The notes: a model not told the origin generated them from the letters alone. Positions 1 through 56,363 are shown, counted from the stretch's first letter. The stretch is 64,000 bases of DNA from Dehalococcoidia bacterium (GCA_019694855.1 JAIBBD010000003.1:33264-97263), one strand, 5' to 3'. Translations and numbers: made by a program.

Positions 1-636
1 GTGCAGCGGGATCGTCTGGCTGCCCCCGGCGACGATCGCCTTCAGCTTCTTCGAGCCCATGACCGCGCCGAGGCCCGAACGCGCGGCGGAACGCCCGATG
101 TCGTTCATAACGCCAGCCGTCAGGGACATCGTCTCGCCGGCGCGTCCGATCCAGGCGACCTCGAACTTCTTGCCGTAGCGCTCGCGAAGGACGCGCTCCG
201 GGTGGAGGTCGTCGCCCTGGTTCCAGATGTCGGCGGCGTCGTGCAGCGAAGCGACTCCGTTATCGATGAGGAGGTACACCGGGCGCTCCGAGATCCCTGT
301 GACGAAGACGCCGTCGTAGCCGGCGAACTTCAGCGACGGCCCGAAGGTGCCGCCGCAGTTGGCGTCACCCCAGGTGTTCGTCTTCGGCGACTTGCCAATC
401 GCCGTGAACCGGTTGCCGGTGACCGCGGACGTGCCCGTGAGCGGGCCCGTCACGATGCCAAACACGTTGTCCGGACCGAGCGGATCGGCGTTTGCGGGCA
501 TCCGGTCGTACAGCAGCCGGGCCGCCACCCCGTACCCGCCGACGTACTGCTCGTACATCTCGTCGGGCAGGCGCTCCTCGCGGATGTCACCGCTGGTGAG
601 GTCTACCCACAGGATCTTGCCCATGACGCCGAGCAT
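1..636 (-). CDS. Tungsten-containing aldehyde:ferredoxin oxidoreductase (AOR family) N-terminal part; gene runs off the left edge of the window
   Basis: Reverse-complement translation of 1-636 reads MLGVMGKILWVDLTSGDIREERLPDEMYEQYVGGYGVAARLLYD...GSKKLKAIVAGG, the characteristic AOR N-terminal domain (compare the second AOR at 7380-9270). No stop occurs in the window, so it is absent from the ORF track. The start was chosen at ATG 636 (alternative ATG 624). Confidence 0.7.
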   Translation of the reverse strand, partial: MLGVMGKILWVDLTSGDIREERLPDEMYEQYVGGYGVAARLLYDRMPANADPLGPDNVFGIVTGPLTGTSAVTGNRFTAIGKSPKTNTWGDANCGGTFGPSLKFAGYDGVFVTGISERPVYLLIDNGVASLHDAADIWNQGDDLHPERVLRERYGKKFEVAWIGRAGETMSLTAGVMNDIGRSAARSGLGAVMGSKKLKAIVAGGSQTIPLH

Positions 637-709
637 CTCGTCCTCCTCGTAACGTGCGTTTCACGCTCAAGGGTAGCGAGGCGTATCGAGGAGCGGAACA
701 AAGCGATCG

Positions 710-1741
710 TTATCGAGTCGTGTCGGGCAGCCAGTGCAGCCGCTCGATATCGACCGCGAGCGCCAGCATCGCCCCCGGCCGCAGTTCCCGCCCCGCGATG
801 TGGGCGGCGCCGACCTCGAAGGTCGCGGGGCCGCCGAGGTCGCACACAAGCTGGACGCGGCCTCCCGCGCCCCGGATCGAAAGCAGCGGCACGCGTGACG
901 CGCCCGGCTCGACGTCATCCGCGAGGCGGACGGCGCCCGGCGGCAGGTGCGCGAGGACGCCTCGAGCCTCGACCCTGGGGGCGAGGCAACGCACTTGCTC
1001 CGGCGTGAGCAGCGCGTGCCCGAGGAGACTCGCGACCTCTGCGGACCGCGGGTACTCGAGCACCTGGCGCGTCGGGCCATCCTGGACGAGACGACCTCCG
1101 ACGAGGACCGCGAGGCGGTCCGCCAGGAGCTCCGCCTCACCGCGGTCGTGCGTGGCGATGAGCGCCGTCACCGCCGAGGCGGCGAGCAGTTCACGCAGGT
1201 CGCCGACGAGCCGCGCCCGCGTCTCGAAGTCGAGCGATGCAAACGGCTCATCGAGGAATAGCAGCTCCGGGTCCACGGCGAAGGCCCGCGCGAGCGCGAT
1301 GCGTTGTGCCTCGCCGGCGGAGAGTGTGTGCGGCCGCGCGCCCGCGAGGTGGGCGACCCCCAGCCGCTCCAGCCAGCGCTCCGCCCTACGCCGGCGCTCG
1401 CTGCCAGACACGCCATGGATGCCCAGCGCGACTTCGACGTTCCCCCGCGCGGACATGTCGAGGAGCGTCGGGTCGGTGAAGACGCTGGCGGTGCGGCGGC
1501 GCAGGCGAGCGCGCTCGCCGCGTCCTCGTGGTCGCGCACCAAACAGCTGGACGCTGCCGGCCGCCGGCTCGATCAGCAGCGCGGCCGTCCGCAGCAGCGT
1601 GGACTTGCCCGACCCGTTCGGCCCGAGGAGCGCGACGGCCTCTCCCGCCGTTGCCACGAACTCCTCGACGACGAGGATGTCCCGCTTCCCGAGATGCACG
1701 CGCAGGCCATCGAGGCGGACAACCTCGGCCGGCGCCGTCAT
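710..1741 (-). CDS. tupC: Tungstate/molybdate ABC transporter ATP-binding protein with C-terminal TOBE-like domain
   Basis: Walker A GPNGSGKST, ABC signature LSAGEAQR, Walker B LLFLDEP. The start overlaps the tupB stop by 4 nt, and the gene sits in an operon with a permease and a TTTS-motif binding protein. Confidence 0.85.
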   Translation of the reverse strand: MTAPAEVVRLDGLRVHLGKRDILVVEEFVATAGEAVALLGPNGSGKSTLLRTAALLIEPAAGSVQLFGARPRGRGERARLRRRTASVFTDPTLLDMSARGNVEVALGIHGVSGSERRRRAERWLERLGVAHLAGARPHTLSAGEAQRIALARAFAVDPELLFLDEPFASLDFETRARLVGDLRELLAASAVTALIATHDRGEAELLADRLAVLVGGRLVQDGPTRQVLEYPRSAEVASLLGHALLTPEQVRCLAPRVEARGVLAHLPPGAVRLADDVEPGASRVPLLSIRGAGGRVQLVCDLGGPATFEVGAAHIAGRELRPGAMLALAVDIERLHWLPDTTR

Positions 1742-2436
1742 GCGCGCCGCATACGGTGCAGCGCCGCCGCCAGGACGACGGCGATCGCGAAGACGATGGC
1801 GAGCAGGATGAGCCCGAGTGCGAGCGCCGTCCCGAAGTTGCCCTTGCTCATCTCGAGTACGGAGGCCGTCGTGAGCACGCGCGTCTCGCCCGCCAGGTTG
1901 CCGCCGACCACGGTCGAAGCTCCTACCTCGGACACGACCGCGCCAAAGCCAGCCATCGTCGCCACGAGGAGCGGCAGGCGCGCCTCGCGAGCCACGAGCC
2001 AGAGGTAGCGCGCATCGCCGGCGCCCATGGCCCGGATCTGGAGGCGTAACGCGGGCGGCAGGGCCATCACGCCCGTGCTCGTCACGGCCACGATGACGGG
2101 TGTGGCGATCAACGACTGCGCGATCACCATCGCGCCGGGCGTGTAGATGAGCCCGAGTTGCCCCAGCGGGCCCGACCGCCAGAGCAGGATCGCGACCACG
2201 AGGCCGGCGACGACGGGCGGCATCCCCATCCCCGCATACGAGAACGCGACGAGGATCCGCTGCCCCGGGAACCGCCCGAGCGCGAGCAACAGTCCGATCG
2301 GCACCCCGATCAGCATTGAGATCAGAGTCGAGCTGCCGGTGATCGTGAGCGTCCGCCAGGCGATCCCGTAGACGTCGCCGTCACCGGTCCGAAGGAGCCG
2401 CCACGCCTCGCTGAACGCGTCGAAGATCAGGTCCAC
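1738..2436 (-). CDS. tupB: ABC transporter permease (tungstate/molybdate-type)
   Basis: 232-aa polytopic membrane protein with a BPD-transporter-like core, lying between the binding protein and the ATPase. Confidence 0.85.
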   Translation of the reverse strand: MDLIFDAFSEAWRLLRTGDGDVYGIAWRTLTITGSSTLISMLIGVPIGLLLALGRFPGQRILVAFSYAGMGMPPVVAGLVVAILLWRSGPLGQLGLIYTPGAMVIAQSLIATPVIVAVTSTGVMALPPALRLQIRAMGAGDARYLWLVAREARLPLLVATMAGFGAVVSEVGASTVVGGNLAGETRVLTTASVLEMSKGNFGTALALGLILLAIVFAIAVVLAAALHRMRRA

Positions 2437-2438
2437 GG

Positions 2439-3362
2439 TCAGTCAGGGTAGGGGATGAACAGCGAGACGCCGAACTTGTCCTTCCCGAACTCCCCGATCG
2501 TCTTCTGCGTGCTGCTCGCGAGGAGAAAGTCGCTGAAGCGACGGGCGGCCTTCACATGCAGCCCGTCGTGCTTCGCGGGGTTCACGACGATCACGTGGTA
2601 GACGTTGAAGAGCTTCGCGTCGCCTTCCACGAGGAGTGGCAACCGCTTCGGGTCGGCGGTCGCCAGCCACGTCGCGCGGTCGGTCAGCGTGTAGCCCTTG
2701 CGCTCCGCGGTGATCGTGAGCGTCGCCTCCATGCCCTGGCCGGTCTCGGTGTACCAGGACGCGCCCGTCGGCACCTTGAGGCCGGCCGCCGCCCACAGGT
2801 CCTTCTCGGCCGCATTCGTGCCGGAGTTGTCTCCCCGGCTGATGAACGAGGACTCAGTCCGTGCAATCGCGGCCATCGCCGCGGCGGCGTCCTTGCCCCC
2901 CTTGATGCCTGCCTTGTCCTCCGGCGTCCCGACGATGATGAAGTCGTTGTACATGACGCGTTTGCGCGACTCGCCGTTTCCGGCGGCCATGAACGTCTCT
3001 TCCGCCTTCGGCGAGTGCACGAGGAGGACGTCGGCGTCCCCGCGCTCCCCCATCTGCATCGCCGCGCCCGAGCCCACGGCGATCACCTTCACGTGGTCGC
3101 CCGTCGCGCGCTCGTACAGCGGGATCAACACGCCCAGGAGACCGGAATTGTCGGTGCTGGTGGTCGTCGCGAGGATCAGTTCCTCGCCGCCGGCCGGCGG
3201 CGTGGGGGACGCGGTGGCCGCCGCCGTCGCCGGCGCGGTACCTTGCTCCTCGGCGGCGGAGTCGTCGTCGCCGCAGGCTCCGAGGAGCAGGACCGCCAGC
3301 AGAGCGGCGGCGAGCAGACTGATGATGGACGAACGTCGCACGAGTTCCCCCTCCGAGCGCAT
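2439..3362 (-). CDS. tupA: Tungstate ABC transporter substrate-binding lipoprotein
   Basis: Lipoprotein signal LLLGAC followed by the anion-binding PBP fold. It contains the TTTS motif (ILATTTSTDNSGLL) regarded as diagnostic for TupA-type tungstate binders. The start was chosen at the MRSEGELV ATG (3362); the longer track ORF starts upstream. Confidence 0.8.
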   Translation of the reverse strand: MRSEGELVRRSSIISLLAAALLAVLLLGACGDDDSAAEEQGTAPATAAATASPTPPAGGEELILATTTSTDNSGLLGVLIPLYERATGDHVKVIAVGSGAAMQMGERGDADVLLVHSPKAEETFMAAGNGESRKRVMYNDFIIVGTPEDKAGIKGGKDAAAAMAAIARTESSFISRGDNSGTNAAEKDLWAAAGLKVPTGASWYTETGQGMEATLTITAERKGYTLTDRATWLATADPKRLPLLVEGDAKLFNVYHVIVVNPAKHDGLHVKAARRFSDFLLASSTQKTIGEFGKDKFGVSLFIPYPD

Positions 3363-3438
3363 TGCACGACGGGGCGACACGCTACCAGAGCCGGCGCCCA
3401 CGCGACAGGGGCGGCCTGGTCTGCGCATTTGTACGAAG

Positions 3439-3816
3439 GTGTGGGTGGAGCGCGACGACGGCATCGTCCTGATGAGCGAGTTCCGCGCCGACCTCCTCGA
3501 AGGCGTGGCGGCCGAGGGATCCGTGGCCGCGGCTGCGAGGACGCTCGGCCTCCCGAACCGCACCGCGTGGAAGAAGCTCGAAGAGATGGAACGGGCCGCC
3601 GGTGTGTCGCTCATCGATACGTCTTCCGGCGGAGCCCACGGCGGTGGCACGACGCTCACCGAGGCGGGCCGCGCGCTTGTGGAGGCCTACCGCCGGATCA
3701 GCGACCCGGTCTCGGCCGAGGTACAGGAACGCTTCGAAGCCGAGCGCGCGCTGTTCGAGCGGGAGACGGCGCCCTCCCCGCATCGGACGCCGGATCGCGC
3801 CGACGCGTCATCGTAA
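3439..3816 (+). CDS. ModE-like N-terminal winged-HTH molybdate/tungstate-responsive regulator (no TOBE domains)
   Basis: GSVAAAARTLGLPNRTAWKKLEEMERAAGVSLIDTSSGG matches the ModE N-terminal HTH region. The gene is divergent from tupA with a roughly 77-bp shared intergenic region. The start is uncertain (GTG 3439 or ATG 3472). Confidence 0.55.
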   Translation: MWVERDDGIVLMSEFRADLLEGVAAEGSVAAAARTLGLPNRTAWKKLEEMERAAGVSLIDTSSGGAHGGGTTLTEAGRALVEAYRRISDPVSAEVQERFEAERALFERETAPSPHRTPDRADASS

Positions 3817-3855
3817 GATCGGCTGCGTGCCGCACTCACCAGAGGCCCAGCGACG

Positions 3856-5139
3856 ATGAACGCTCACCTGCGTGACGTGCGCATGCGTGGTTTCGCCGAG
3901 CGCTCCGACGTCGAGGACGTGGAGCGATTCCTCCGCGCGCACACGGCGCCGCTCCCGGCGGAGGCCGTCGCGCTGCTCGATTGCGTCGGTCGCGTGCTCG
4001 CCGAGGACGTCGTTTCGACGGTCAATGTGCCGGGCTTCGTGCGCGCCGCGATGGACGGCTACGCCGTCCGCGGCGAGGACACGTTCGGCGCCAGCGCATA
4101 CGACACGATCGCGCTGCGCGTCCTCGGCCAATCGCTGCCCGGCAACCCGTTCCGAGGTCAGGTCGACGCTGGCGGAGCGGTACGCATCATGACCGGCGCA
4201 CCCCTGCCCGACGGTGCGGACGCGGTGATCATGGCCGAGGTCTGCCGCGAAGCCGGGGGCCTGGTCGAGGTCAGCGAGGCCGTGGCGCCTCGCCGCAACG
4301 TCGACGAGGTCGGCGAGGATGTTGCCCGCGGCCAGTTGCTGCTGCGTACCGGGCGGCGACTTCGCCCCCAGGACGCCGGCCTGCTTGCTTCGATCGGCCG
4401 GGGAGTTCTGACGTGCGTAGCGCGGCCGCGCGTGCAGCTGCTGATCACTGGAAACGAGTTGCTGCCTCCCGGAGCCGCGCCCGAGGGCCCGCACATCGTC
4501 GACAGCAACTCGGTCGTGCTGAGTGCGCTCGTCGCGCGTGATTCTGGGCACTTGCTCCCGGTATGCCGCCTCGCGGACGACCGCGAACGGATCCGGGCCG
4601 CGCTCGCCTCGTCCGAGGCAGACGTCATCCTCGTGTCCGGTGGCAGCTCCGTGGGCATGGAGGACTTCGCGCCGTCGCTGGTCGCGGAGCTCGGCACGCT
4701 CGACGTGCATGGCATCTCGATGCGGCCGTCGAGCCCGACCGGAATCGGCCGGCTCCCCGGCGACGGTGGGCGCGAGCGCCTCGTGTTCCTGCTCCCCGGC
4801 AACCCGGTGAGCTGCATGTGCGCCTACGAGTTTTTCGCCGGCCCCGCGATTCGTGCGCTCGGCGGCCGGCCCTGGAGCTGGCCGCACGCGCGCGTACGCC
4901 TGCCCCTCGCCCGCAAGATCGTCTCGCAGGTAGGCCGCACCGACTACGTTCGCGTGGCGATCGAGGGGGGTCGAGCCGTGCCGCTGGCGACCTCGGGCGC
5001 TTCGATCCTCTCGTCGACCGTCCGTGCGGACGGGGCGGTGATCGTGGAGCGCGGCCTCGAAGGGATGCCGGAGGGGGCGGAGGTCGAGGTGCTGCTGTAC
5101 GACGAGCCGGGCGAAACGCCCGCGTCCCGGGAACGCTGA
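3856..5139 (+). CDS. moeA: Molybdopterin molybdenum/tungsten-transferase MoeA
   Basis: 427-aa protein with full MoeA N, central and C-terminal domain signatures (PGFVRAAMDGYAV, GGSSVGMEDF). Confidence 0.9.
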   Translation: MNAHLRDVRMRGFAERSDVEDVERFLRAHTAPLPAEAVALLDCVGRVLAEDVVSTVNVPGFVRAAMDGYAVRGEDTFGASAYDTIALRVLGQSLPGNPFRGQVDAGGAVRIMTGAPLPDGADAVIMAEVCREAGGLVEVSEAVAPRRNVDEVGEDVARGQLLLRTGRRLRPQDAGLLASIGRGVLTCVARPRVQLLITGNELLPPGAAPEGPHIVDSNSVVLSALVARDSGHLLPVCRLADDRERIRAALASSEADVILVSGGSSVGMEDFAPSLVAELGTLDVHGISMRPSSPTGIGRLPGDGGRERLVFLLPGNPVSCMCAYEFFAGPAIRALGGRPWSWPHARVRLPLARKIVSQVGRTDYVRVAIEGGRAVPLATSGASILSSTVRADGAVIVERGLEGMPEGAEVEVLLYDEPGETPASRER

Positions 5140-7049
5140 TGGTGCAGCAGCAGTTCCTCGAGGTGCTCGACCGCGACGAGGCAGAAGCACGCTGGCACGC
5201 GGTGATCGCGCCCGCGGCCCTCGAACCCGAAGTCGTGCCGCTCGCGGACGCGCTCGGGCGTGTGCTCGCCGAAGACGTGCGCGCCGAGGTGGACGTGCCC
5301 GGGTTCGACCGCTCAAACATGGACGGCTTCGCGGTCCGCGCGCTCGATACGTATGGGGCGATGGAGGAGAAGCCCGTCCGCCTGCGCCTGAACGCCGAGG
5401 TGCTGCCCACCGGCGTCATCCCGGCCGTCGAGGTGGTCGACGGCTCTGCGACGACCATCGCCACCGGCGGCATGTTGCCTCGCGGCGCGGACGCGGTCGT
5501 CCCGGTTGAGCAGACCGACATCGAGGACGGCGGCGCGACGGTCGTCGCGCGCCGCCCGGTCGTGCCCGGGGAGAACATCTCCTTCGCCGGCACGGACATC
5601 GGCGCGGGCGAGACAGTGCTCTTCGCCGGGACGCGCCTCACCTCGAGGGACACGGGCGTCCTCGCCGCGATCGGGGCCGCCGAGGTGGCCGTCGTACGCC
5701 GGCCGCGCGTCGCCGTCATCTCCACCGGCGACGAGGTCGCGCAGCCCGGCGCCCCGATGCGCCCCGGCCTCGTGTTCGACAGCAACGGCCGGATCATCGC
5801 CGACGCCGTACGTGAGCTCGGCGGCGATCCCTGGTTCCTCGGGAGCTACCCGGACGACGAGGACGCCATCCGCGGCGCCGTCGAACGCGCCCTGGCCGAC
5901 GCCGACATGGTGCTGCTCTCAGGCGGGACCTCGAAGGGTGAGGGGGACCTCAACAGCCGCGTCGTCGGTGCGCTGACGCCCGGCATCGTCGTGCACGGGG
6001 TCGCGCTCAAGCCGGGCAAGCCGATCTGCCTCGCGGCGCAAGGCACGACGCCGGTCGTCGTGCTGCCCGGCTTCCCGACCTCGGCGGTGTTTACGTTCCA
6101 CGAGTTCGTCGCGCCCGTCATCCGGCGCATGGCGGGCGAAGGCGAGGCGCACCGCGAGTCGGTCCGCGCCCGTCTGGCGGTGAAGACCAACTCCGAGCGC
6201 GGACGGCTCGAGTACCTCCTCGTGGGCCTCGTCGAGGTGCCCGACGGCGAGCTGGCGGCGTACCCGATGGGGAAGGGCAGCGGCTCGGTCACCTCGTTCA
6301 GCCGCGCGGATGGGTTCATCCGCATCGAACGCAACGTGGAGCTACTCGATGAGGACACCGAGGTCGAGGTCCACTTGATCGGCCGTCAGCTCCCACTGGC
6401 GGACCTCGTCGTGATCGGGAGCCACTGCGTCGGGCTCGACCTCATCGCCAGCGAACTCTCACGCGAGGGCCTGCGCGTGAAGGTGCTCGCCGTGGGCAGC
6501 CAGGGTGGCCTCGCCGCCGCCCGCCGCGGCGAGTGCGACGCCGCTCCCATCCACCTGCTCGACCCGGCTACGGACACGTACAACGAGCCGTTCCTCGACC
6601 CGTCGCTGCGGCTACTCCCCGGCTACCGGCGGATGCAGGGCGTCGTCACGCGCTCCGGCGACGAGCGCGAGGTGACGGCCCTCCTCGACGACCCCGAGGT
6701 ACGCATGGTGAACCGCAATCGCGGCAGCGGGACGCGCATCCTCATCGACCAGCTCCTCGAAGGCCGACGACCTCCCGGGTACGCATACGAGCCACGCTCG
6801 CACTTCGCGGTCGCGGCGGCGGTAGCCCAGGGCCGCGCCGATTGGGGCGTGACAATCGAGACCGTCGCGCGCCAGGCGGGGCTCCGGTTCATCCCGTTGC
6901 GTCCAGAGCACTACGACCTCGCGGTGCCGGCCGGCCGCTGGGATCGGCCCGCCGTGCAGGCCTTGCGGCGCGTGCTCGATCGCCCATCGCTGCGCGCCCG
7001 CCTCGAGGCGATCGGCTTCGCCTCGCCGGACCCGCCCGAGGCGAGCTAA
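5139..7049 (+). CDS. Second MoeA paralog fused to a C-terminal PBP-like (molybdate/tungstate-binding-like) domain
   Basis: Starts at the ATG overlapping the moeA stop (TGATG). The N-terminal roughly 400 aa are MoeA-like (PGFDRSNMDGFAV...SGGTSKGEGD). The C-terminal roughly 230 aa resemble the PBP_like domain found fused to MoeA in archaea and some bacteria. Confidence 0.85.
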   Translation: MVQQQFLEVLDRDEAEARWHAVIAPAALEPEVVPLADALGRVLAEDVRAEVDVPGFDRSNMDGFAVRALDTYGAMEEKPVRLRLNAEVLPTGVIPAVEVVDGSATTIATGGMLPRGADAVVPVEQTDIEDGGATVVARRPVVPGENISFAGTDIGAGETVLFAGTRLTSRDTGVLAAIGAAEVAVVRRPRVAVISTGDEVAQPGAPMRPGLVFDSNGRIIADAVRELGGDPWFLGSYPDDEDAIRGAVERALADADMVLLSGGTSKGEGDLNSRVVGALTPGIVVHGVALKPGKPICLAAQGTTPVVVLPGFPTSAVFTFHEFVAPVIRRMAGEGEAHRESVRARLAVKTNSERGRLEYLLVGLVEVPDGELAAYPMGKGSGSVTSFSRADGFIRIERNVELLDEDTEVEVHLIGRQLPLADLVVIGSHCVGLDLIASELSREGLRVKVLAVGSQGGLAAARRGECDAAPIHLLDPATDTYNEPFLDPSLRLLPGYRRMQGVVTRSGDEREVTALLDDPEVRMVNRNRGSGTRILIDQLLEGRRPPGYAYEPRSHFAVAAAVAQGRADWGVTIETVARQAGLRFIPLRPEHYDLAVPAGRWDRPAVQALRRVLDRPSLRARLEAIGFASPDPPEAS

Positions 7050-7372
7050 CCGCCCGAGAACTGACCAAGCAGCGAGACCGTGTCCCCGGGCGCGAGGCGC
7101 GACCGGAGCGTGTGTGTGTCGCCGATCATCTTGTGGTTGACCAGCACGTGCAGGTTCTCGGTGATCGCGCCGTCGCGCTCCCAGAGCTGGGCGTGCAGCG
7201 CGGGGTGATGCTGACTGAAGCGGCGCAGCAGCGACTCCACGGAGTCGTCCGGCTCGAGGGCCTCACGAAACGCCACGCTGCCCGAGCCCGACCCTCCGAC
7301 CAGCCGGTTCACCCACGTCAGTACCTCGACGGTCACCTCGGAGCCGTCGAGGCGTGACTCGGCATCGCTCAT
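7046..7372 (-). CDS. MoaD/ThiS-like small sulfur-carrier-type protein ending in Gly-Gly
   Basis: 108-aa protein ending in ...LLGQFSGG, a beta-grasp-like length. It lies immediately downstream of the AOR gene, analogous to the MoaD-like AorE of the Aromatoleum aor operon. Confidence 0.7.
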   Translation of the reverse strand: MSDAESRLDGSEVTVEVLTWVNRLVGGSGSGSVAFREALEPDDSVESLLRRFSQHHPALHAQLWERDGAITENLHVLVNHKMIGDTHTLRSRLAPGDTVSLLGQFSGG

Positions 7373-7379
7373 GCGCGCC

Positions 7380-9270
7380 TCAGCCCCAGAGTTCCGCCTT
7401 CACCTCGGGCAGCGCGAGCCGGTCCAGGAGTTCGGGAAGGGGCCGACCGCTCTCGCGGTCGTACTCCACGAGCTCGTACCACGTGTCGAGCATGTGGTCC
7501 CAGTGCGGGGCGGTCGAGACGCCGGCGGCCGGACCGTCGACCGGCGTCGAGCCGTAACGTGCCGAGGGTCGCTCAAGTTCGGGGCCGATGCCGGAGCGAA
7601 GGTTGAAGGCACGCATGAGTGCCGCCGTCCGCCGTCCGAGGTACATCGCGTCGTCCTTGGTGTAGTTCCAGCCCGTCACGGCGCTCACCGCCTCGGCGAT
7701 CGCCGCGATCGTCGTGCTGGTCGTGAAGAAGCACGTCCCGATCGAGTCCTCGAAGTGCCGCCGCCCGAGGGTGAGCGCCACCTGCCGCGGCACGTCGTCC
7801 GGGCTCTGCACCTGCAGCGTCGCGGGCAGTCCGAGCTCCTGCGGGCGCGTCGGGCCCCCGCTCTCCAACGTCCCCGTGCTCGAGACGCACGTGTCGAGCA
7901 TCTCCGGCCACAACGCACGATGGTCGTGCCCGCGCGGGCTCGACCCCTTCATCGTGTACACGGCGCAGTCTTGTGCCGGCCCGCCGAGGTGTTCGGCGGC
8001 GCGCTTGATGCCCTCCGCCAGGACGTCCCCGAAGCCCTGCCGCGTGCAGAGCATCTGCAGCAGCTCGTACGCCGCATCAGCGTCGCCCCAGACGGCCTGG
8101 ATGCCGCCGAGGTCCTGCCTCGTCAGGTACTCCTTCTCGTAGCACTCCATGACCCAGCCGATGACCCAGCCGAATTCGTTCACGTCGACGCCGGCACGGT
8201 CGCACTGGGTGTTCATCCAGGACACCTTGGTGCGGTCGGTGCACCCCCATGCCCAGCCGGCGCCTACCCAGCCCTCGTACTCGGGCTCATCGACCACGTC
8301 ACCGGCATGGACGCCGTCGCGGATCACCTGCATGTGGCAGTGATGCATGCCGCAGGCGTTGCACTGGTGGCCGCGGTGGTCGAAGCCCTCGCGCAGCTCC
8401 ATCGGCTCCCACTTCGACATGTCCGCCTCGGCGGGCAGGATGTTCGTCGTGAGGTTCTTGATCGGCAGGCCGCCCACAGGCGCGAGGCCCGTCACGCCCC
8501 CGAGCGTGCCGATGAGGTAGAAGTTCTGCCCCGGCAGCTCAGTGCGCATCTGGTACGCGATGTCGTCGGCCGTGCGGAACACGCCTCGAGGGTCGGCCAC
8601 GTAGATGCCGCGGTTGCCACGCACGATGGCGACCGCCTTCACGCGCTTCGAGCCCATCACGGCCCCGCAGCCGTTCTTGCTCGCGACGTGGCCGTAGTCG
8701 CCCTGGATCCCCGCGAAGCGGATCAGGTTCTCGCCGGACGGGCCGATGCTGTAGACGGAGAGCTGGTGACCGCTGAGGCCGAGCTCCTCGTACAGGTGGT
8801 CCTGCGTCTCCCACGTGTCGAGGCCGAGGAGATGCGAGGCGTCGCGCAGCTCGGCGGTGCCGTTGTGGATGTACAGGTAGACCCACTGGTCGGAGCGGCC
8901 CTGGAAGACGATGCCGTCGAAGCCCGACGACTTGATGTTCGCCCCGAAGAAGCCGTTCGCCTGCGTGCTGGTCGCGCCGCCGGTAATCGCGCCCTTCGTG
9001 ACGACGCTCAGGCCGCCTGAGCCCCACGTCGGCGTGCCCGCGAGCGGGCCGGTCGCGAGGATGAGACGGTTCTCGGGGTCGTTCCACTGCACATCCGCTC
9101 CGACCTCGTCGTAGAGGATGCGGGCGCCCATGCCGGTGCCACCGACGTAGCTGCGGGCGAACTCGTCGTCGATGGGCTGTTCCCACAGGCGGCCGGTCGT
9201 GAGGTCGACGCGCAGCAGTGCGCCCGCGTACCCGGCCGGCTGATTCCGCTTCTTCTCTGTGACGAGCATT
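7380..9270 (-). CDS. Tungsten-containing aldehyde oxidoreductase, AOR family (AorB-like catalytic subunit)
   Basis: About 630 aa from ATG 9270 (MLVTEKKRNQ...). N-terminal AOR domain (LLRVDLTTG..., GSKRVKAVAIVRG), a Cys-rich FeS/pterin region and the C-terminal AOR domains. The track ORF extends 120 aa further upstream as an Arg-rich artefact. Confidence 0.9.
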
Positions 9271-9304
9271 TGATGTGCCTTTCGCTCGCTGCGCCGTGGG
9301 CGCG

Positions 9305-10684
9305 CTAGACCTCGGTCTGGGCCGCCAGTGCGGCCGCTTCCGGCGACACCCAGCGGGCCGCGTTGACCTCGTCCGCCGGCGTCGAGGGCCGGCCGAGGAC
9401 GGTCTCCTGCAGCAGCCGCCCCACGTGCCCGGTGGCGACGAATGGCCGCTTCAGCTCCCACGGGTTGTCCATCATCGCGCGTTTCCACGCGCCCATCGGC
9501 TGTCCGTCCTGCACCAGCCCCTTGAGGATGCCGACGTCGTTCGTCGCCCACAGGTGTTCGCTGATGCCGATGATGATTGCGCCGGTCATCGCCTCGCCCT
9601 GGCCGTGCCACAGCAACCGCCGGTACGCCCACTGCGAGGGCTTCTCGACAGCCACGCTCTCGGCGTCAGCGTCGTCCCATAGGCCGAAGCTCGCGATCTC
9701 GAGGTCGAGCACGTCGACGATGTTCATGAGCACGGTTCCGCGGTGCGCGCGGTCGACGCCGGCCATGTTCGCGCCCGCGATGCGGCCGTGCTCCATGGCG
9801 GCGGGTTCGATGGCGTGCAGCGCGCGCTGGCCCGTCACCCGGTCGAACGCCTCGGCCACGTCGCCGGCGGCGTACACGTTCGGGGCGCTCGTGCGCATGT
9901 GGTCGTCCACGAGGATGCCGCGCCCCATCTCGAGGCCAGCGCCCTCGAGCCAGCCGAGGTTCGGACGGATGCCCGTCGCCATGATCACGACGTCGGCGCT
10001 CAATTCGCCGCCCCCGTCGAGGACGAGCCGCTTCCGTCCGGCGACCTCCTCGATCGCGTTCAATCGCACGCCGGTTTGGACGGTGACGCCGTGCTGCTCC
10101 AGCCAGCGTGTAACGATCGCGGCGCCGTTGGGGTCGATCATCCGAGGCAGGATCGTCGGTGCGAGCTCAATCACGGTGAGCCGCACGCCGAGCTTCACCA
10201 GCGAATTGAGGATCGTGAACGAGATGAACCCCGCTCCCACCAGTACGACCTCGGAGCCAGCTTTCACCTCCGCGATGAGGCCGTCCGCCTGCTCGAGCGT
10301 CCAGAACGAATGCACGCCCGGCAGGTCGGCGCCCGGCACCGGGGCCCGCACCGCCGATGAGCCAGTCGCGATCAGCAGGTCGTCGTAGTCGACTGTCTCG
10401 CCGTTATCGAGCGTGACGCGCTGCTGCGCCGTGTCGAGGGCCGTCGCGCGCCGCCCGATCTGCGTGGTCACCCCCAGTGCGGCGAGGCGGTCCGGAGACA
10501 GCGTCCATACGTGCGACCTCGAAATGCGCTTGCCGAGGTAGTACGGCAGCACCATGCGCGAGTAGGGGCGCTCCTCGGCGACCAGGACGATGTCGGACGC
10601 GCCCTGGTCGAACTCCCGGATCGAGGTGATCGCGTTGATGGCGGCCGTGCCGCCGCCGACGATGACATGTCGCTTAGCGGCCAT
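9305..10684 (-). CDS. FAD/NAD(P)-binding pyridine-nucleotide-disulfide-family oxidoreductase (AorC-like)
   Basis: Start MAAKRHVIVGGGTAAINA (Rossmann GxGxxA), a second dinucleotide fold VVLVGAGFISF, and the FAD motif AAGDVA. Confidence 0.85.
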   Translation of the reverse strand: MAAKRHVIVGGGTAAINAITSIREFDQGASDIVLVAEERPYSRMVLPYYLGKRISRSHVWTLSPDRLAALGVTTQIGRRATALDTAQQRVTLDNGETVDYDDLLIATGSSAVRAPVPGADLPGVHSFWTLEQADGLIAEVKAGSEVVLVGAGFISFTILNSLVKLGVRLTVIELAPTILPRMIDPNGAAIVTRWLEQHGVTVQTGVRLNAIEEVAGRKRLVLDGGGELSADVVIMATGIRPNLGWLEGAGLEMGRGILVDDHMRTSAPNVYAAGDVAEAFDRVTGQRALHAIEPAAMEHGRIAGANMAGVDRAHRGTVLMNIVDVLDLEIASFGLWDDADAESVAVEKPSQWAYRRLLWHGQGEAMTGAIIIGISEHLWATNDVGILKGLVQDGQPMGAWKRAMMDNPWELKRPFVATGHVGRLLQETVLGRPSTPADEVNAARWVSPEAAALAAQTEV

Positions 10685-11162
10685 TCGTCGCCCCGATCCG
10701 CGCGAGGTCGGCGGCCGACCGTTGCGCCGCGAAGGCGCCCGTCCAGTCCTGCGTGAAGTCCTCGATCCAGGTAATCGCCTGAGTCGGGCAGGCGTGCGCA
10801 CACTGCGGGTCGCCGCCGCACAGGTTGCACTTGAACGCCTTCTCACGTTCGGGGTCGTAGAAGATCGTCCCGTACGGGCACGCGAGGGTGCACAGCTTGC
10901 ACCCTACGCACTGGTCGTCCTGCACTTCCTTCGCTCCGACCGCCGAGATGTCGATCGCCTCGACCGGGCAGGCGGTCATGCACCACCCCTCGGCGCACTG
11001 GAAGCAGGTATAGGGCGAGAAGCTCGTGTGTCCTCGCTCGAACGCGCTCACACGAATCACGGACTTCGAGGGGTTGAATTCACCGCTCTGCACGTAGGAG
11101 CAGGCCACCTCGCAGCGCAGGCAGCCGGTGCATTTCTCCGGCTCGATATGCAGGACTTTCAC
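10674..11162 (-). CDS. Poly-ferredoxin electron-transfer subunit with four [4Fe-4S] motifs (AorA-like)
   Basis: 162-aa protein with four Cys clusters (CTGCLRCEVAC, CFQCAEGWCMTACP, CVGCKLCTLACP, CNLCGGDPQCAHACP). It overlaps the downstream FAD subunit start by 11 nt. Confidence 0.85.
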   Translation of the reverse strand: MKVLHIEPEKCTGCLRCEVACSYVQSGEFNPSKSVIRVSAFERGHTSFSPYTCFQCAEGWCMTACPVEAIDISAVGAKEVQDDQCVGCKLCTLACPYGTIFYDPEREKAFKCNLCGGDPQCAHACPTQAITWIEDFTQDWTGAFAAQRSAADLARIGATNGR

Positions 11163-11410
11163 CGGCTCACCCTCTCATCTCGTGTGCAGTCCGGGCCCGA
11201 CTGCGCGCAGTCTGGCACCCCAGCCCGCGGGCCCACAAGACTGCACCCGCGTGCAATACGGTCAGTGCCTGCCGGTCGCCGGCAAACCCTGGCGAGGCAT
11301 CAGCGCGGCTCGTCCACCCCTCGCGGCCGCTCCAAGACCACAACCGGGCGCTGCGGCACAATCCCCCACGACGACATCCAATGTGCAGCGCCTGAAGGGA
11401 CCGCAGCAGC

Positions 11411-12484
11411 GTGAAGATCGAGACCGGCTTCGGGGAGACCTGGCTCGGGGAAGTGCCCGCGCGCGTGCGCGCCGCGGAAGCGGCGGGCTTCGACTCGATC
11501 AGCACGCCAGAGATGCGGCACAACTCCATCCTCGAGCTCACGCTCGCTGCCGAACACACCGAGCGGATGGAGCTCTGCACGGGCGTCACGATCGCATTCC
11601 CACGCTCCCCGATGGTCATGGCGCAGTCCGCGTGGGACCTGCAGCAGTTCAGCAAAGGGCGCATCAACATCGGCCTCGGTTCGCAGGTCAAGGGCCACAA
11701 CATCCGGCGCTTCGGCGGCACCTGGTCGCCCCCCGCGCGCCGCATGGAAGAGTACGTCACGATGATGCGGGCCATCTGGCGCTCCTGGCAGTTCGGCGAG
11801 CGCCCCGAGTTCGTTGGCGAGGACTACCGCTACCTGCTCATGACCCCCGCCTTCAACCCCGGCCCGATTGATTACCCGTTCCCGAAGATATCGATCGCCA
11901 GCGTCGGCCCGAAGATGGCCGAGGTCGCCGGCGCCGTCGGCGACGGGCTCCGGCCCCACGGCTTCATGACCGAGAAGTACATGCGGCAGACCGTCCTGCC
12001 CGCCCTCGAGAAAGGCGCGCGGCGCGCCGGGCGCTCCCTCGCCGACATCGAGGTCTCGGTCGGCGGGTTCAGCGCCTTTGGCGAGACCCAGGCCGAGGTC
12101 GAGCAGGCGATCGACGCCCTCCGCCGTCCGATCTCCTTCTACGGCTCGACCCGTACCTACCACGTCGTATTCCAGGCCCACGGGCTCGAGGCGCTCGGGA
12201 TGCGCCTGCACGAACTCTCGCTGCGAGGCGAGTGGGACAAGATGCTCGACGCCGTGACCTTCGAGCACGCCGCCGAGATGGCCAATGCCTGCACCTACGA
12301 CGATCTGCCGCAGTACGCCCGCGAGCACTTCGAGTACGCCACCCGCCTCCGGCTCCCCTTCGGCGACGATCACGCCGCCGGTCGCTACGGCGGCTCCTCG
12401 GACGCCGAAGGGTCGGCCCCGTCGATGAGCCGCGAGCGACTCGACTGGCTGATCAAAGAGCTCCACACGGTCGGAGCGGAATGA
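11411..12484 (+). CDS. LLM-class (luciferase-like) flavin/F420-dependent oxidoreductase
   Basis: 357-aa TIM-barrel LLM family protein. GTG start preceded by a GAAGGGA Shine-Dalgarno sequence. Confidence 0.8.
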   Translation: MKIETGFGETWLGEVPARVRAAEAAGFDSISTPEMRHNSILELTLAAEHTERMELCTGVTIAFPRSPMVMAQSAWDLQQFSKGRINIGLGSQVKGHNIRRFGGTWSPPARRMEEYVTMMRAIWRSWQFGERPEFVGEDYRYLLMTPAFNPGPIDYPFPKISIASVGPKMAEVAGAVGDGLRPHGFMTEKYMRQTVLPALEKGARRAGRSLADIEVSVGGFSAFGETQAEVEQAIDALRRPISFYGSTRTYHVVFQAHGLEALGMRLHELSLRGEWDKMLDAVTFEHAAEMANACTYDDLPQYAREHFEYATRLRLPFGDDHAAGRYGGSSDAEGSAPSMSRERLDWLIKELHTVGAE

Positions 12485-16157: not shown

Positions 16158-16880
16158 TCATACGACGAGGTCCGCTCGCACGACCAGACGCTGGTCGTAG
16201 GCATGCGCGGCCGCGCTGAACGTGCCAGCGCACGTGATCAGCGTCGCCGTCGCCGAAGTTGTCGGGCCGAGGATCTCCCCGACCGGCGCGGTCGCTTCGT
16301 CGTAGGCCGCGACCCACGCCACGCGATACTCGAACGTCGTGCCGTCGTCGAGCCGCACGAGGAACGTATCGCCTGCGCGCAGCTCGCGCAGCCGGTAGAA
16401 CACCGCCGGCCCGTAGTTCGCGAAGTCCACATGCCCCGCGAGCACGAAGTTCCCGTCCTCGCCCGGCGGCGCCGCGAAGGCATACGACGCCACCTCCAGG
16501 GGCCCCGAAGGAGCGGGCATCGTTCCGTCGGCACGCAGACCCAGCGTCACGATCGGCGCATCCACCCCGATCCGAGGTACCACCAGCCGTCCGCCGCCTC
16601 TGGTGGGCGCCGCGGCGCCCACGGCCGCACTCGCGGCACTCGACGAGATCAGCGGCAGCCCGCTCGGTGTGGCGCTGGCAATCGCCGTTCCAGTCGGGGT
16701 CCCGGTGGCCGCTGCGGCCGTGGCCGCGCCGGCCACCGTCACCAGCTCGGGCGTCGAAACCACCGTCGCCACGGTCGCTGCCCTTTCGTTGCCGTCCTCG
16801 CTGGACGAACCGGACCACGACACGCTCGAGATCACGAGCATGACGAGTGCGGTGACCAGCGCGATTCTCAGGACATGCAC
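16158..16880 (-). CDS. Sortase family transpeptidase (class E/F-like)
   Basis: N-terminal TM segment, LVVPRIGVDAPIV, catalytic His in GHVDF, and catalytic Cys in TLITCAG. It follows the LPNTG protein gene. Confidence 0.8.
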   Translation of the reverse strand: MHVLRIALVTALVMLVISSVSWSGSSSEDGNERAATVATVVSTPELVTVAGAATAAAATGTPTGTAIASATPSGLPLISSSAASAAVGAAAPTRGGGRLVVPRIGVDAPIVTLGLRADGTMPAPSGPLEVASYAFAAPPGEDGNFVLAGHVDFANYGPAVFYRLRELRAGDTFLVRLDDGTTFEYRVAWVAAYDEATAPVGEILGPTTSATATLITCAGTFSAAAHAYDQRLVVRADLVV

Positions 16881-16944
16881 CTGGTGCCCCTCGGTACGAC
16901 GAGGAGTGGAGGAGCACTCACTCCCCCACTCCTTCGTCGATGAC

Positions 16945-19900
16945 CTACGACTTCCGCCGCTTTGACCGCGAGCGCATCACCAGCGTGAGCGCTACGACGA
17001 GCCCGGCGCCTGCGGCGAGCCACGAGATCGGGAGCGTCACGTTACGCTGCGCCCGCTCCTTCGCCACCTCGTAGGCCGACACGATCCGGTCCTGCGGGAC
17101 GTTGATCGAACCCGGGAAGTTCCCTCCACTGCCCGTGTTGGGCAGACGGCTCGGCACCGGCTGCGTCGGCGTGGGTGTCGGAGCCTGCACAGGTGGTGGC
17201 GAGCCCAACACCGTGGTCACGACGACCGGCTGGTACGTAATTGAGTGCGTATCACTCCCTGTCGCCGTCTTCTGATTCGGGTCAGTCACCACCGCCGTGA
17301 ACGTGTTCACGTGCGTCCCGAGGGATACCCCAGCCGGCACCGTGAACGTCGCGTCGAACGTGCAACTCGCCCCGATCGCCAGCACCGTGCCGACCTTGCA
17401 GTCGGCGTCGCCGCTCAGCGTCCCGAACTTGTCGTCGCTCAACGATGTGATCGTGACCGCGATCGGCCCCGTGTTCGTCACGGTGTACGTGTACGTCACA
17501 GGGCCGCCGGTCGCCGGCAGCGTCGTCGTCGCCGAGGTCTTGTCGACCAGGATCGAGGGCTGTGGGTTCGCTACGTAGGTAATTGTGTGCGAGTCCTTGC
17601 CCGTTGCCGTCTGCTGCTTCGGATCGGTCACGACCGCCGTGAACGTGTTCACGTGCGTCCCGAGGGCCGCGCCCGCGGGCACCGTGAACGTCGCGTCGAA
17701 CGCGCAGGACGCACCGACCGCGAGCACCGTGCCGACCTTGCAGTCCGCGTCCCCGACCAACGTGCCGAACTTGTCGTCACTCAGCGAGGTAATCGTCACC
17801 GACACCGGCCCGGTGTTTGTCACGGTGTACGTGAACTTCACAGGACCGCCGCCGACGGGCAGCGTGGTTGTGACCGAGGTCTTGTCCACCCGCACCGAGG
17901 GCTTCGGGTCGGCGAGGTACGTGATCGTGTGTGTGTCGTTGGCCGTCGCGGTCTGCTGGTTCGAGTCCGTCACCACCGCGGTAAAGCGGTTGATGTGCGT
18001 CCCGAGGTCAGCCCCGGCTGGGACTGTGAACGTCGCATCGAAGCTGCACGACGCCCCCACGCCCAGCAGGATCCCGACCTTGCAGTCCGCGTCTCCGGCC
18101 AGCGTCCCGAACTTGTCGTCGACCAGCGATGTGATCGTCACGGGCACCGGGCCCGTGTTCGTCACTGTGTAGGTGAACGTCACTGGCCCGCCGCTCGTCG
18201 GCAGTGTCGTCGTGACCGAGGTCTTGTCGACCCGGATCGCCGGCACCGGCACCTGGATATATGTGATCGTGTGCGAGTCGCTCGCCGTCGCGGTCTGCTG
18301 CTTCGCGTCCGTGACAACCGCCGTGAACGTGTTCACGAAGGTCGCGAGCACGGTCCCGCCCGGCACAGCGAACGTGGCGTCGAACGTGCACGAGGCGCCT
18401 ACGGCCAGCGGCGTCCCGACCTTGCAGTCGGCGTCACCCGCCAGGGCTCCGAACTTGTCATCGTTCAGGCTCGTGATCGTGACCGCGACCGGCCCGGTGT
18501 TCGTCACCGTGAACGTGTAGGTGACGGAACCGCCGCCCGCGGGCAATGTCGTCGTCGCCGACGTCTTGTCGACCCGCACCGAGGGCTTTGCGTCAGCGAT
18601 GTACGTGATCGTGTGATCGTCGCTGTCCGTCGCCGTCTTTCCGTTCGAGTCCTTGACGACGGCCGTGAACGTATTGATGTGCGTCGACAGCGCGCTTCCT
18701 GCGGGGACGTTGAACGTCCCGTCGAAGGTGCAGGAGGCGCCCGGCGCGAGCGCCGTCCCGACCTTGCAGTCAGCGTCTCCCGCCAGCGCCCCGAACTTGT
18801 CATCGTTCAGGCTCTGGATCGTCACCGCGACCGGCCCCGTGTTCGTCACCGTGTACGTAAACGTCACCGACCCGCCGCTCGTCGACAGCGTCGAGGTCGC
18901 CGACGTCTTGTCGACGAGCACGGACGGCTGCGGTTCCGCGATGTACGTGATGGTGTGGTCGTCCGTGTCGCTCGCCGTGTGGTCGGCGTTGTCGTGCACG
19001 ACCGCGGTGAACGTGTTCACGTGCGTCGTCTGTGCGGCGCCTGCCGGCACCGTGAACGCGGCGCTGAAGTCGCACCAGGCCCCGACCGCGAGCAGCGTCC
19101 CGACCTTGCAGTCAGCGTCTCCCGCGAGCGGCCCGAACTTGTCGTCGGTCAGGCTCTGGATGGTCACCGCGACCGGCCCCGTGTTCGTCACCGTGTACGT
19201 AAACGTCACCGACCCGCCGCTCGTCGACAGCGTCGTCGTCGCCGAGGTCTTGTCCACCAGCACCGCCGGCAACGGCGTCGCGAGGTACGTGATCGTGTGG
19301 TCGTCTGTGTCGCTCGCCGTGTGGTCGGCGTTGTCGTGCACGACGGCCGTGAACGTGTTCACGTGCGTCGTCTGCGCCGCGCCCGCCGGCACGGTGAACG
19401 CGGCGTCGAAGCTGCACGAGGCGCCCACCGCAAGTGGAGTGCCGACCTTGCAGTCCCCGTCACCGCTCAGCGTCCCGAACTTGTCATCGCTCAGGCTTTG
19501 GATGGTGACCGCCACTGGCCCTGTGTTCGTCACTGTGTAGGTGAACGTCACAGACCCACCGCTCGTCGGCAGCGTCGTGGTGACCGAGGTCTTGTCCACC
19601 AGCACCGACGGTAGCGGCGTGGCCAGGTAGGTGATCGTGTGGTCGTCCGTGTCGCTCGCCGTGTGGTCGGCGTTGTCGTGCACGATGGCCGTGAACGTGT
19701 TCACGTGCGTCGTCTGCGCGGCACCCGCCGGCACGGTGAACGCGGCGTCGAAGCTGCACGAGGCGCCCACCGCAAGTGGAGTGCCGACCTTGCAGTCCCC
19801 GTCACCGCTCAGCGCCCCGAACTTGTCGTCGCTCAGGCTCTGGATCGTCACGGGCACAGGCCCGGTGTTCGTCACCGCGTAGGTGAACGTCACGAGTCCG

Positions 19901-41358: not shown

Positions 41359-41417
41359 GCTGCACCGCCTGTCGCCTCTTCAGGGGGATGGGTGGATCAT
41401 GTCCCCGACCGCTCCGA

Positions 41418-51081: not shown

Positions 51082-51217
51082 GACCCGCTCCACCACTCAC
51101 CAAAGCACGAGGGAGTCGCCCGCCACACCGGTCAAACGGCGACGCGCCTGAGTATAAGAGCCCTCGCCGCTACCCTCCTCACGATGTGACCGGGACACGC
51201 CGACCGAAGCCCCCGTT

Positions 51218-51310
51218 CCAGGGCGGACGGGTGGGACCTTCCGAAAAACACTGCCGGCCCACGCAGCGGGCCGTCTCCTCCCGGCCGGCGCAGCCGGCCG
51301 CCCTCCGCCT
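51218..51310 (+). repeat. Structured intergenic repeat family, copy D (3' half only) between argD and argG
   Basis: GGGTGGGACCTTCCGAAAAACACTGCCGGCC...GGCCCacgcagcGGGCC...GGCCGGCGCAGCCGGCCGCCCTCC. Confidence 0.6.
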
Positions 51311-51498
51311 CGCCCGCAACGCGGGAGAGGGGAACTGAGGGGGCGACGGAGCACCCGACCCGGCGCCGACGCAACCGGCATCGAAGACAGACACCCCAAC
51401 GCCGGCCCCGAGCCCCGCCCCGCTTGCGGGGGAGAGTGTGGAGGATCCGAGAAACCGCTGCCGAGCGGGAACGAGGCCTCGGTCGCCCCCCCGAGGTA

Positions 51499-52689
<1,191 letters not shown>

Positions 52690-56345: not shown

Positions 56346-56363
56346 CTCGTTCGTCTCATTCAG

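Follow-up and report, generated by a model that had tools for sequence, protein, structure and literature searches.

A gene block in the DNA of a Dehalococcoidia MAG, from an uncultured lineage, is probably a tungsten-supply island, with all functions assigned from homology and gene context. The stretch of DNA analyzed (the window) is 64,000 nucleotides long. ORF and domain profile searches placed every gene of the original prediction where it had been listed (Table 1), and the gene content bears out its reading of a coherent tungstate uptake and metal insertion module flanked by AOR-family clients. The claim that everything needed lies in one block did not hold. Genes for MPT synthesis and adenylylation lie outside the window, and no moaA, moaC, moaE, mogA/moaB, or mobA was found among the ORFs scanned across its 64 kb. 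The block illustrates clearly a gene arrangement that the literature already describes and does not represent a new type of system. The locus bears on how cells keep W and Mo apart when they assemble their cofactors, and it offers a compact natural example, from the little-studied Dehalococcoidia, of a predicted W-preferring importer together with two MoeA paralogs and a pair of tungsten-type enzymes.

In the proposed pathway, the TupA lipoprotein would bind tungstate outside the cell, and TupB and TupC would import it. Two co-translated MoeA paralogs would put the metal into adenylylated molybdopterin made by genes elsewhere. The PBP_like domain of MoeA2 would serve as a cytoplasmic oxyanion module with a TupA-like His/Arg/Thr pocket, most likely capturing tungstate for delivery to the active site of the enzyme; of all the steps, this is the least certain. 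Finished cofactor would then reach two AOR-family enzymes, one single subunit (probably co-transcribed with tupABC) and one AorABC type and NAD linked. A ThiS/MoaD-like gene follows each AOR gene and is thought to aid pterin maturation. Control of the divergent tup promoter probably falls to the 123-aa ModE DNA-binding domain, whose gene would come first in the moeA operon.

Table 1. Genes and control region of the putative tungsten island (window coordinates)
Feature	Position	Strand	Basis or remark
AOR-family gene, 5′ part, 212 codons	636..1	-	PF02730 AFOR_N; runs past window edge
tupC, ABC ATPase, 343 aa	710..1741	-	PF00005
tupB, permease, 232 aa	1738..2436	-	NF038017 ABC_perm1
tupA, predicted tungstate-binding lipoprotein, 300 aa	2439..3341	-	PDB 5MY5/3LR1 matches
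Divergent tupA/modE control region	3342..3444	.	Intergenic motif, weak
ModE N-terminal-domain-only regulator, 123 aa	3445..3816	+	PF00126 HTH_1
moeA1, unfused MoeA, 427 aa	3856..5139	+	MoeA_N, MoCF_biosynth, MoeA_C (Pfam)
moeA2-PBP, 636 aa	5139..7049	+	NF011068, PF12727; PBP_like part about 6450-6977
ThiS/MoaD-like small protein, 108 aa, C-terminal GG	7046..7372	-	PF02597 ThiS
aorB-like tungstopterin subunit	7380..9269	-	AFOR_N + AFOR_C; beyond the 1-7372 of the original prediction
aorC-like FAD/NAD subunit	9305..10684	-	8C0Z_E match, Pyr_redox_2
aorA-like poly-[4Fe-4S] subunit	10674..11162	-	8C0Z_C match

The gene order tupA-tupB-tupC is that of known TupABC tungstate transporters, and TupA is 45 to 47% identical to the solved proteins of D. 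alaskensis G20 (PDB 5MY5) and G. sulfurreducens (3LR1). In a structure-database sequence search, TupA matched 5MY5 at an E value of 6.5e-63 (47% identity) and 3LR1 at 3e-58. The predicted TTTS motif is encoded at 3156-3167 and aligns with that of solved TupAs. Alignment to 5MY5, 3MUQ, and 3LR1 showed that all 8 tungstate pocket residues (T9-11, S12, H59, R118, T124, and D170 in D. alaskensis numbering, as listed in PMC5517513) are kept. The loss of such residues, which the original prediction had named as grounds for rejecting it, is not seen. TupA is a predicted tungstate binder; the class is defined by pM tungstate affinity and preference over molybdate, and TupA-type proteins bind molybdate too, with nM Kd (PMC5517513). 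Unlike the solved TupAs, the window's protein is a lipoprotein (signal peptide, lipobox LLGAC) with a long Ala/Pro/Thr linker, and it has SGTN in place of the near-invariant SGTH. It is just 39 to 44% identical to the TupAs adjoining the nearest moeA-PBP relatives. Its score against the NCBIfam equivalog NF041772 (234.6 bits; cutoff, 400), a model threshold and not a biochemical criterion, makes it a divergent member. TupB likewise falls below its equivalog cutoff (NF041773, 146.7 bits; cutoff, 320), and it scores 226 bits against NF038017 (cutoff, 100). The tupC gene overlaps tupB by 4 nt; its product matches PF00005 at 5e-28 and is extended C-terminally by about 100 aa, and the last 104 aa give nothing stronger than a match to TOBE_2 below threshold (E = 0.019). 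The tupA start is a GTG at 3341 with GGAGGGGG just before it, and the 300-aa call has the same length on contig L081.

The AOR-family gene at the window edge matches PF02730 (E = 1.5e-70) over the N-terminal 212 aa, the sole part inside the window, and its best PDB match is 1AOR (1e-48). The full 624-aa protein, AOR2, is encoded on contigs L081 (99.5% identical to the window) and L082, where it has both AFOR_N and AFOR_C, and the next ORF downstream encodes 73 aa ending in GG. A 73-bp gap separates tupC from the AOR2 gene, which follows it in the same orientation behind a strong RBS, GAGGAGG. With a single large subunit and a small GG-tail ORF after it, the arrangement resembles Class I WOR plus WorX as defined in PMC13328260, and AOR2 is predicted to be a single-subunit, Class I WOR-like member of the family. 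It had been described as a second AOR paralog; an AOR-family gene is indeed present, but it shares just 31.5% identity with the AOR at 7380-9269 and so belongs to a different subfamily. The product of the 7380-9269 gene, which also has both AFOR_N and AFOR_C, matches PDB entries 9MQX_D, 1AOR, and 8C0Z_A (1.8e-80 to 2.9e-72, with 8C0Z_A third at 2.9e-72). The best PDB matches of its neighbors are 8C0Z_E for the aorC-like product (3e-78) and 8C0Z_C for the aorA-like product (1.6e-50). The presence together of large, poly-ferredoxin, and FAD subunits points to an AorABC-type (Class III WOR) operon, with tungsten as the predicted metal. As in A. aromaticum AorABC (PDB 8C0Z; PMC6365974), ferredoxin-like, tungstopterin, and FAD subunits are accompanied by a MoaD/ThiS-like gene, but the order is A-C-B-D rather than A-B-C-D-E, one MoaD-like gene stands in place of two (AorD and AorE), and identity of the AorB-like protein to known enzymes is moderate. 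The small gene at 7046-7372 matches PF02597 at 1e-4, with sub-cutoff matches to SAMP1 and moaD_arch; it is a WorX/AorD-like last gene of the aor operon and falls within the span of the original prediction. Counting against the tungsten assignment, some AOR-family members elsewhere (Class V) may use Mo (PMC13328260).

The two moeA genes meet at TGATG, where the TGA stop of moeA1 (5137-5139) and the ATG start of moeA2 (5139-5141) share 1 nt; the ATGA overlap that had been predicted is not present here. Among 80 relatives, the pair is contiguous in nearly all and has a 4-nt NTGA overlap in 60, and an AOR-family gene lies upstream of it in 52 of the 59 loci whose flanks are long enough. The two copies differ in which Pyrococcus MoeA they most resemble, and the best PDB matches of MoeA1 are the Pyrococcus structures 1XI8 and 1WU2. 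In E. coli numbering, both proteins keep D59, T100, E188, D228, D259, P298, P301, and S303. In MoeA1, K282 is replaced by Ser, S371 by Ala, and the KPGKP loop by MRPSSP, which is found in 76 of 77 orthologs. Given this loop and a score of 288 against the NCBIfam MoeA equivalogs (cutoff, 440), we filed MoeA1 as a MoeA-family paralog and not as a canonical MoeA. Its sequence is exactly that of HRC61809.1, from a Dehalococcoidia MAG. MoeA2-PBP is a MoeA-PBP fusion, carrying MoeA_N, MoCF_biosynth, MoeA_C, and PF12727 in a single chain, and it scores 751.9 bits against NF011068 (PRK14498, the archaeal "MoeA1" clade; cutoff, 534) over residues 2 to 627. It also retains K279 and K282, and its KPGKP is intact; Leu occupies the R350 position, at which Arg is missing in 30 of 33 diverse representatives of the fused clade.

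The C-terminal domain of MoeA2 was assigned to PF12727 PBP_like (E = 2e-51). An AF2 model of the domain (pLDDT, 96.4) has a class II oxyanion-binder fold, and its closest structural neighbors include proteins that bind phosphate, molybdate, or tungstate. Homology to TupA was detectable (hhalign probability, 89%), and the invariant His, Arg, and Thr of the domain (H53/R107/T113) align with TupA H59/R118/T124. The relationship to oxyanion-binding folds assumed in the original prediction was therefore upheld. The same domain, at 39 to 46% identity, is fused to a ModE-type HTH_1 in proteins of about 350 aa; TunR of Desulfovibrio is reportedly an HTH-PBP_like regulator of this kind, responsive to Mo/W. 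In VnfR-type HTH-PBP_like Mo/W-responsive regulators (PMC12327845), the PF12727 domain is the presumed oxyanion sensor, whereas in the window its fusion partner is an enzyme rather than a DNA-binding domain.

A 2025 study (Commun Biol; PMC11733289) described archaeal-type MoeA genes lying side by side in bacteria, together with the PBP fusion and its link to TupA, in agreement with the archaeal comparison made in the original prediction. The locus shares with those pairs two adjacent moeA genes, one with a C-terminal PBP-like fusion, and tupABC at the same locus, and Chloroflexota, the phylum of the host, is named there as well. Since this architecture and the TupA link were already published, the locus leaves the current picture unchanged. 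Three features were not found in the available portion of that paper: the unfused copy comes first and has MRPSSP, the fused clade lacks the R350-position Arg in 30 of 33 representatives, and the PBP_like domain shows a specific alignment to the pocket residues of TupA. The locus offers concrete residues (H53, R107, and T113 of the PBP pocket, those of the MRPSSP loop, and the lost arginine), along with a small candidate regulator whose target region is defined.

Upstream of the moeA pair, the 123-aa regulator matches PF00126 HTH_1 (7e-10, 39 bits; cutoff, 26.6) and, below cutoff, TIGR00637 ModE_repress (E = 5e-19, 68 bits; cutoff, 98.5). The gene is divergent from tupA, as predicted, but its product corresponds to the ModE N-terminal winged-helix DNA-binding domain alone. 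Profile searches found no Mop/TOBE domain in it even at E ≤ 10, and with no C-terminal di-Mop/TOBE molybdate-binding domain, it is better called ModE-N-only than ModE. Homologs of 113 to 182 aa also have only HTH_1, and the contexts examined show the ModE-N gene and tupCBA pointing away from each other in 6 of 7 cases. As the regulator lacks a sensing domain, tungstate-responsive control is conjectural. The ModE-like regulator of C. jejuni, which is tied to tup regulation, likewise has a DNA-binding domain of the ModE type and no Mop domains, and a partner is thought necessary (Taveirne et al. 2009, summarized in PMC3417520). Unlike that regulator, the window's protein has no detected coiled-coil domain, and its gene lies divergently beside tupABC as the first of the putative moeA operon, with a predicted function. 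It is possible, though rather unlikely, that the conserved Mop-less ModE-N/tupABC module senses metal via a PBP_like partner such as the domain fused to MoeA2.

Tungsten specificity of either MoeA is something we infer; residue-level comparison did not settle the preference. MoeA paralogs are metal specific in M. maripaludis (PMC10805699), and a W-specific MoeA in archaeal-type pairs is put forward as a hypothesis in PMC11733289. The only published set of W-selectivity residues, from M. extorquens MoeA1 (PMC13197769), comprises Arg for the second Lys of KPGKP and Ala for Ser303; by alignment, neither window MoeA matches it, and at these positions the fused copy retains Lys and Ser, as canonical MoeA does. 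The absence of this signature and the fully canonical KPGKP/Ser303 site of the fused MoeA, together with the nM affinity of TupA for molybdate noted above, would fit a system without metal discrimination, in which TupABC and both MoeAs take any group 6 oxyanion and the paralogs differ by client or expression. We consider this unlikely: an approximately 1,000-fold W preference is known for TupA, all of whose pocket residues are kept here, characterized members of the adjacent AOR/AorABC-type groups contain W and no Mo (PMC6365974), and MoeA-PBP is found together with TupA in 86% of cases (PMC11733289). The fused domain in PBP-fused MoeAs might be an obligatory entry and selection site for the oxyanion and not an accessory, a tentative proposal that we also doubt. 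It draws on the TupA-like pocket, the lost R350-position Arg of the fused clade, and an unfused partner without the second Lys of KPGKP. If it is true, metal choice for the W cofactor would lie on a transporter-derived domain in the cytoplasm, and the two MoeA paralogs would be mechanistically nonequivalent.

MoeA1 might not be a normal insertase but a noncatalytic or specialized partner, for example, half of a MoeA1/MoeA2-PBP heterodimer. The near fixation of MRPSSP, the Ala at Ser371, and the adjacency and overlapping ends of the genes, which favor equal stoichiometry, are in keeping with such a role. It appears quite unlikely, however, as the other catalytic-core residues of MoeA1 are all conserved and its nearest solved relatives, 1XI8 and 1WU2, are archaeal MoeAs that form homodimers and have an [RK]PGRP loop. 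Less probable still is that the PBP_like domain is a sensor, either gating MoeA allosterically or acting in trans as the metal-sensing partner of the Mop-less ModE upstream. Its occurrence in HTH_1 fusions, the lack of a sensing domain in a regulator encoded directly upstream of the moeA genes, and the C. jejuni precedent are compatible with this role. Yet ModE-N/tupCBA modules exist without an adjacent moeA-PBP, and no ModE-N gene was found near moeA-PBP in any of 80 Myxococcota loci. Moreover, in both the full-length MoeA2-PBP AF2 model (pLDDT, 91.8; pTM, 0.82) and the published dimer model (PMC11733289), the domain sits on MoeA domain IV and is turned toward the active site.

In the control region at 3342 to 3444, neither a sigma-70-like site nor an Rfam match was found. 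The modE-tupA intergenic region contains a motif, TTGCAC-N8-GACACGCTAC, at 3362-3385. Similar TTGCAC...ACGCTAC elements in the equivalent intergenic regions of contigs L084, L085, and L086 hint at conservation, and that of contig L087 has an ACGCTA-type core, ACGCTATCAC.

A map of the left end of the window (65-72% G+C), built from an ORF listing, frame translation, and third-position G+C, confirmed that the gene block listed in the original prediction is real. The two moeA genes, described there as overlapping by ATGA, instead share a single base (junction TGATG), and the same gene calls were obtained on a related contig. The ThiS/MoaD-like gene, which lies inside the span originally predicted, is part of the neighboring aor operon. 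By exact-match look-up, the MoeA1 sequence is identical to HRC61809.1 of a Dehalococcoidia MAG. The island is also present on three public contigs, of which the 50-kb contig L081 is 99.5% identical to the window across 14 kb and reaches beyond its left edge.

Features of the island at the left end of the window and of selected loci elsewhere in it
Feature	Coordinates	Strand	Remarks
AOR-family gene, cut by window edge	636..1	-	212 codons inside; PF02730, E 1.5e-70
tupC	710-1741	-	
tupB	1738-2436	-	
tupA	2439-3341	-	
tupA/ModE-like gap	3342-3444		103 bp
ModE-like gene	3445-3816	+	123 aa
moeA1	3856-5139	+	
moeA2-PBP	5139-7049	+	
ThiS/MoaD-like gene	7046-7372	-	product ends in GG
aorA-aorC-aorB-like operon	11162..7380	-	outside the span originally predicted
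Sortase gene	about 16158-16976	-	adjoins surface protein gene
Surface protein, 1876 aa	16945-22575	-	VWA, DUF11, seven DUF7507 repeats, CARDB
STAND-type NTPase, 942 aa	34292-37120	+	AAA_16/NB-ARC and TPR_12
Arginine biosynthesis cluster	49837-57737	-	argJ, argB, class-III aminotransferase, argG

The AOR-family gene cut by the window edge is complete on L081 (624 aa, AFOR_N plus AFOR_C), where a 73-aa ORF with a terminal GG and then phage-like genes come after it. Its product and the AorB-like protein of the aor operon share only 31.5% identity. The cut AOR and the 73-aa GG-tail ORF are a Class I WOR with WorX in the 2026 scheme (PMC13328260), and the aor operon with its MoaD-like gene is a Class III WOR with WorX. 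Among solved structures, AorABC of Aromatoleum aromaticum (8C0Z) is the best relative of the AorA-like and AorC-like proteins, while 8C0Z_A is the third-ranked match of the AorB-like protein, behind 9MQX_D and 1AOR. The MoaD-like gene at the tail of the operon matches AorD/E of A. aromaticum (PMC6365974). Left of the window start (L081 1-3532), TerL_nuclease, ParB_N, and DNA methyltransferase genes come after the 73-aa ORF, which is ThiS/WorX-like; they form a phage-like remnant next to the island.

The closest solved relatives of the window TupA are the Desulfovibrio alaskensis (5MY5, E 6.5e-63) and Geobacter (3LR1) proteins. The pocket residues of TupA are T9-T11, S12, H59, R118, T124, and D170, and R118 was found by experiment to be required for binding (PMC5517513). 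On alignment, all of them are kept in the window protein, in line with the predicted tungstate coordination. Characterized TupA also binds molybdate, with a nanomolar Kd (PMC5517513). The tupA gene has a GTG start at 3341 preceded by a strong ribosome-binding site, GGAGGGGG, and its product carries a signal peptide and a lipobox. TupA and TupB score under the NCBIfam equivalog cutoffs. A search of the TupC C terminus for a TOBE/Mop domain gave only a sub-threshold TOBE_2 match (E 0.019).

The regulator encoded divergently from tupCBA consists of a ModE DNA-binding domain without a Mop or TOBE part (ModE-N). Its homologs, labeled as coming from Dehalococcoidia and Chloroflexi MAGs, are 113 to 182 aa long and contain HTH_1 only. 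Since the gene is divergent from a tupCBA operon in six of seven contexts, ModE-N/tupABC is a conserved module in itself. The nearest precedent is Campylobacter jejuni ModE, which controls tup and mod despite having no metal-binding domain (PMC3417520). PMC12327845 cites a Mop-truncated E. coli ModE whose DNA binding does not depend on molybdate. A loose element resembling TTGCAC-N8-10-(G)ACGCTAC is shared by the tupA/modE-N intergenic regions of the window (3342-3444) and of three other ModE-N/tup contexts (L084 4768-4950, L085 6895-7000, and L086 6866-7000); a fourth, L087 (4888-5000), has the ACGCTA-type core only. These regions are otherwise unalignable. The element may serve as an operator or promoter and is offered as a lead only. 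No perfect inverted-repeat operator was found in 3342-3444, and scans of 1-11600 for sigma-70 promoters and intrinsic terminators gave nothing beyond shuffle expectation.

The nearest relative of each MoeA copy is a Pyrococcus MoeA, but not the same one: 1XI8 and 1WU2 for the unfused copy, 1UZ5 for the fused one. This is in keeping with the archaeal MoeA duplication of PMC11733289. In an alignment to E. coli MoeA, both copies keep D59, T100, E188, D228, D259, P298, P301, and S303 and diverge near the oxyanion site. In the unfused copy, the KPGKP of MoeA, Cnx1E, and gephyrin is replaced by MRPSSP, a change fixed in 76 of 77 orthologs, and the S371 position is Ala. The fused copy retains KPGKP, as do all of its orthologs (80/80), and has Leu at the position of E. 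coli R350; 30 of 33 diverse fused representatives have L, P, or M there. The putative role of E. coli R350 and of the entry-site residues of Cnx1E is suggested by this sequence pattern. In M. extorquens MoeA1, tungsten bias was attributed to Arg in place of the second Lys of KPGKP and Ala in place of Ser303 (PMC13197769). These residues were rejected as a means of assigning the metal, being matched by neither window copy; thus, the sequence criteria at hand do not tell which paralog handles tungsten. Tungsten specificity of the MoeA pair is putative.

The C-terminal domain of MoeA2 was assigned to PBP_like by Pfam (PF12727, E 2e-51), and the whole protein scores above the NF011068 cutoff. A plain sequence search of the domain against the PDB gave no match; only profile and fold comparisons gave relatives. 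In profile-profile comparison, the domain aligned with TupA (89% probability, E 2e-6), with H53, R107, and T113 aligned to TupA H59, R118, and T124. Among 43 aligned domain sequences, S9, S35, H53, N63, R79, R107, T113, R114, H136, D149, E171, and D174 are invariant. The AlphaFold model of the domain (pLDDT 96.4) and the TupA profile match are consistent with the predicted relation to oxyanion-binding folds. A delivery role for the domain is putative. The model of full-length MoeA2-PBP (pLDDT 91.8, pTM 0.82) is compatible with the fixed packing of the PBP domain on MoeA domain IV reported in PMC11733289. A 50%-identity protein library contains 3118 cluster representatives of PBP_like, which is also found fused to ModE-type HTH_1 in proteins of ~350 aa. 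One representative, P0131 (847 aa), is a triple fusion of MoeA, PBP_like, and a MobA-like nucleotidyltransferase (PF12804), which connects this insertase fusion with the dinucleotide-cofactor step.

Identity is 68 to 76% for the 80 nearest moeA-PBP loci of reference genomes, most of which are labeled as Myxococcota or Deltaproteobacteria MAGs. These relatives suggested a Myxococcota host, a reading rejected once the exact MoeA1 match pointed to Dehalococcoidia. Nearly all of the loci have a contiguous moeA pair, with a 4-nt overlap in 60, and tupABC lies nearby in 10. In 52 of the 59 loci with enough flank, an AOR-family gene of a third kind lies directly upstream of moeA1 on the same strand; only 25 to 30% identical to either window AOR, it may represent a third AOR clade, operonic with its own insertases. 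No ModE-N or MoaD-like gene was found near the moeA pair in the 80 loci, which shows that the gene combination in the window is lineage specific. Because the window TupA has higher identity to the classical solved TupAs (45 to 47%) than to the TupAs of the related loci (39 to 44%), the island looks, by sequence comparison, as though modules with different histories were put together.

The original prediction held that everything needed was present in one block. Pfam scans of the remaining sizeable ORFs in the window contradicted this, detecting no moaA, moaC, moaE, mogA/moaB, or mobA; the block therefore represents uptake and insertion and not the whole pathway. An Rfam scan of the whole window for a Moco/Wco riboswitch gave no family of any kind at its gathering score. 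The reading as a tungsten-cofactor island is reasonable but mostly in print already. PMC11733289 describes bacteria, Chloroflexi among them, with contiguous MoeA pairs of archaeal type, along with the PBP fusion, its 86% co-occurrence with TupA (28% sharing a locus), and the tungsten hypothesis; tupABC and moeA are also known beside WOR operons (PMC13328260). Added here are a pocket like that of TupA in the fused domain, the reciprocal oxyanion-site changes of the two MoeA paralogs, and the conserved Mop-less ModE-N/tupABC module.

Elsewhere in the window, a gene for a 969-aa UPF0182 membrane protein sits between argB and the class-III aminotransferase gene. At 39874-42275, the genes for a PEP-utilizers mobile-domain protein (- strand) and a PPDK_N ATP-binding-domain protein (+ strand) diverge, and the limits of the two ORFs overlap; the pair resembles a split PEP synthase or PPDK-like enzyme.
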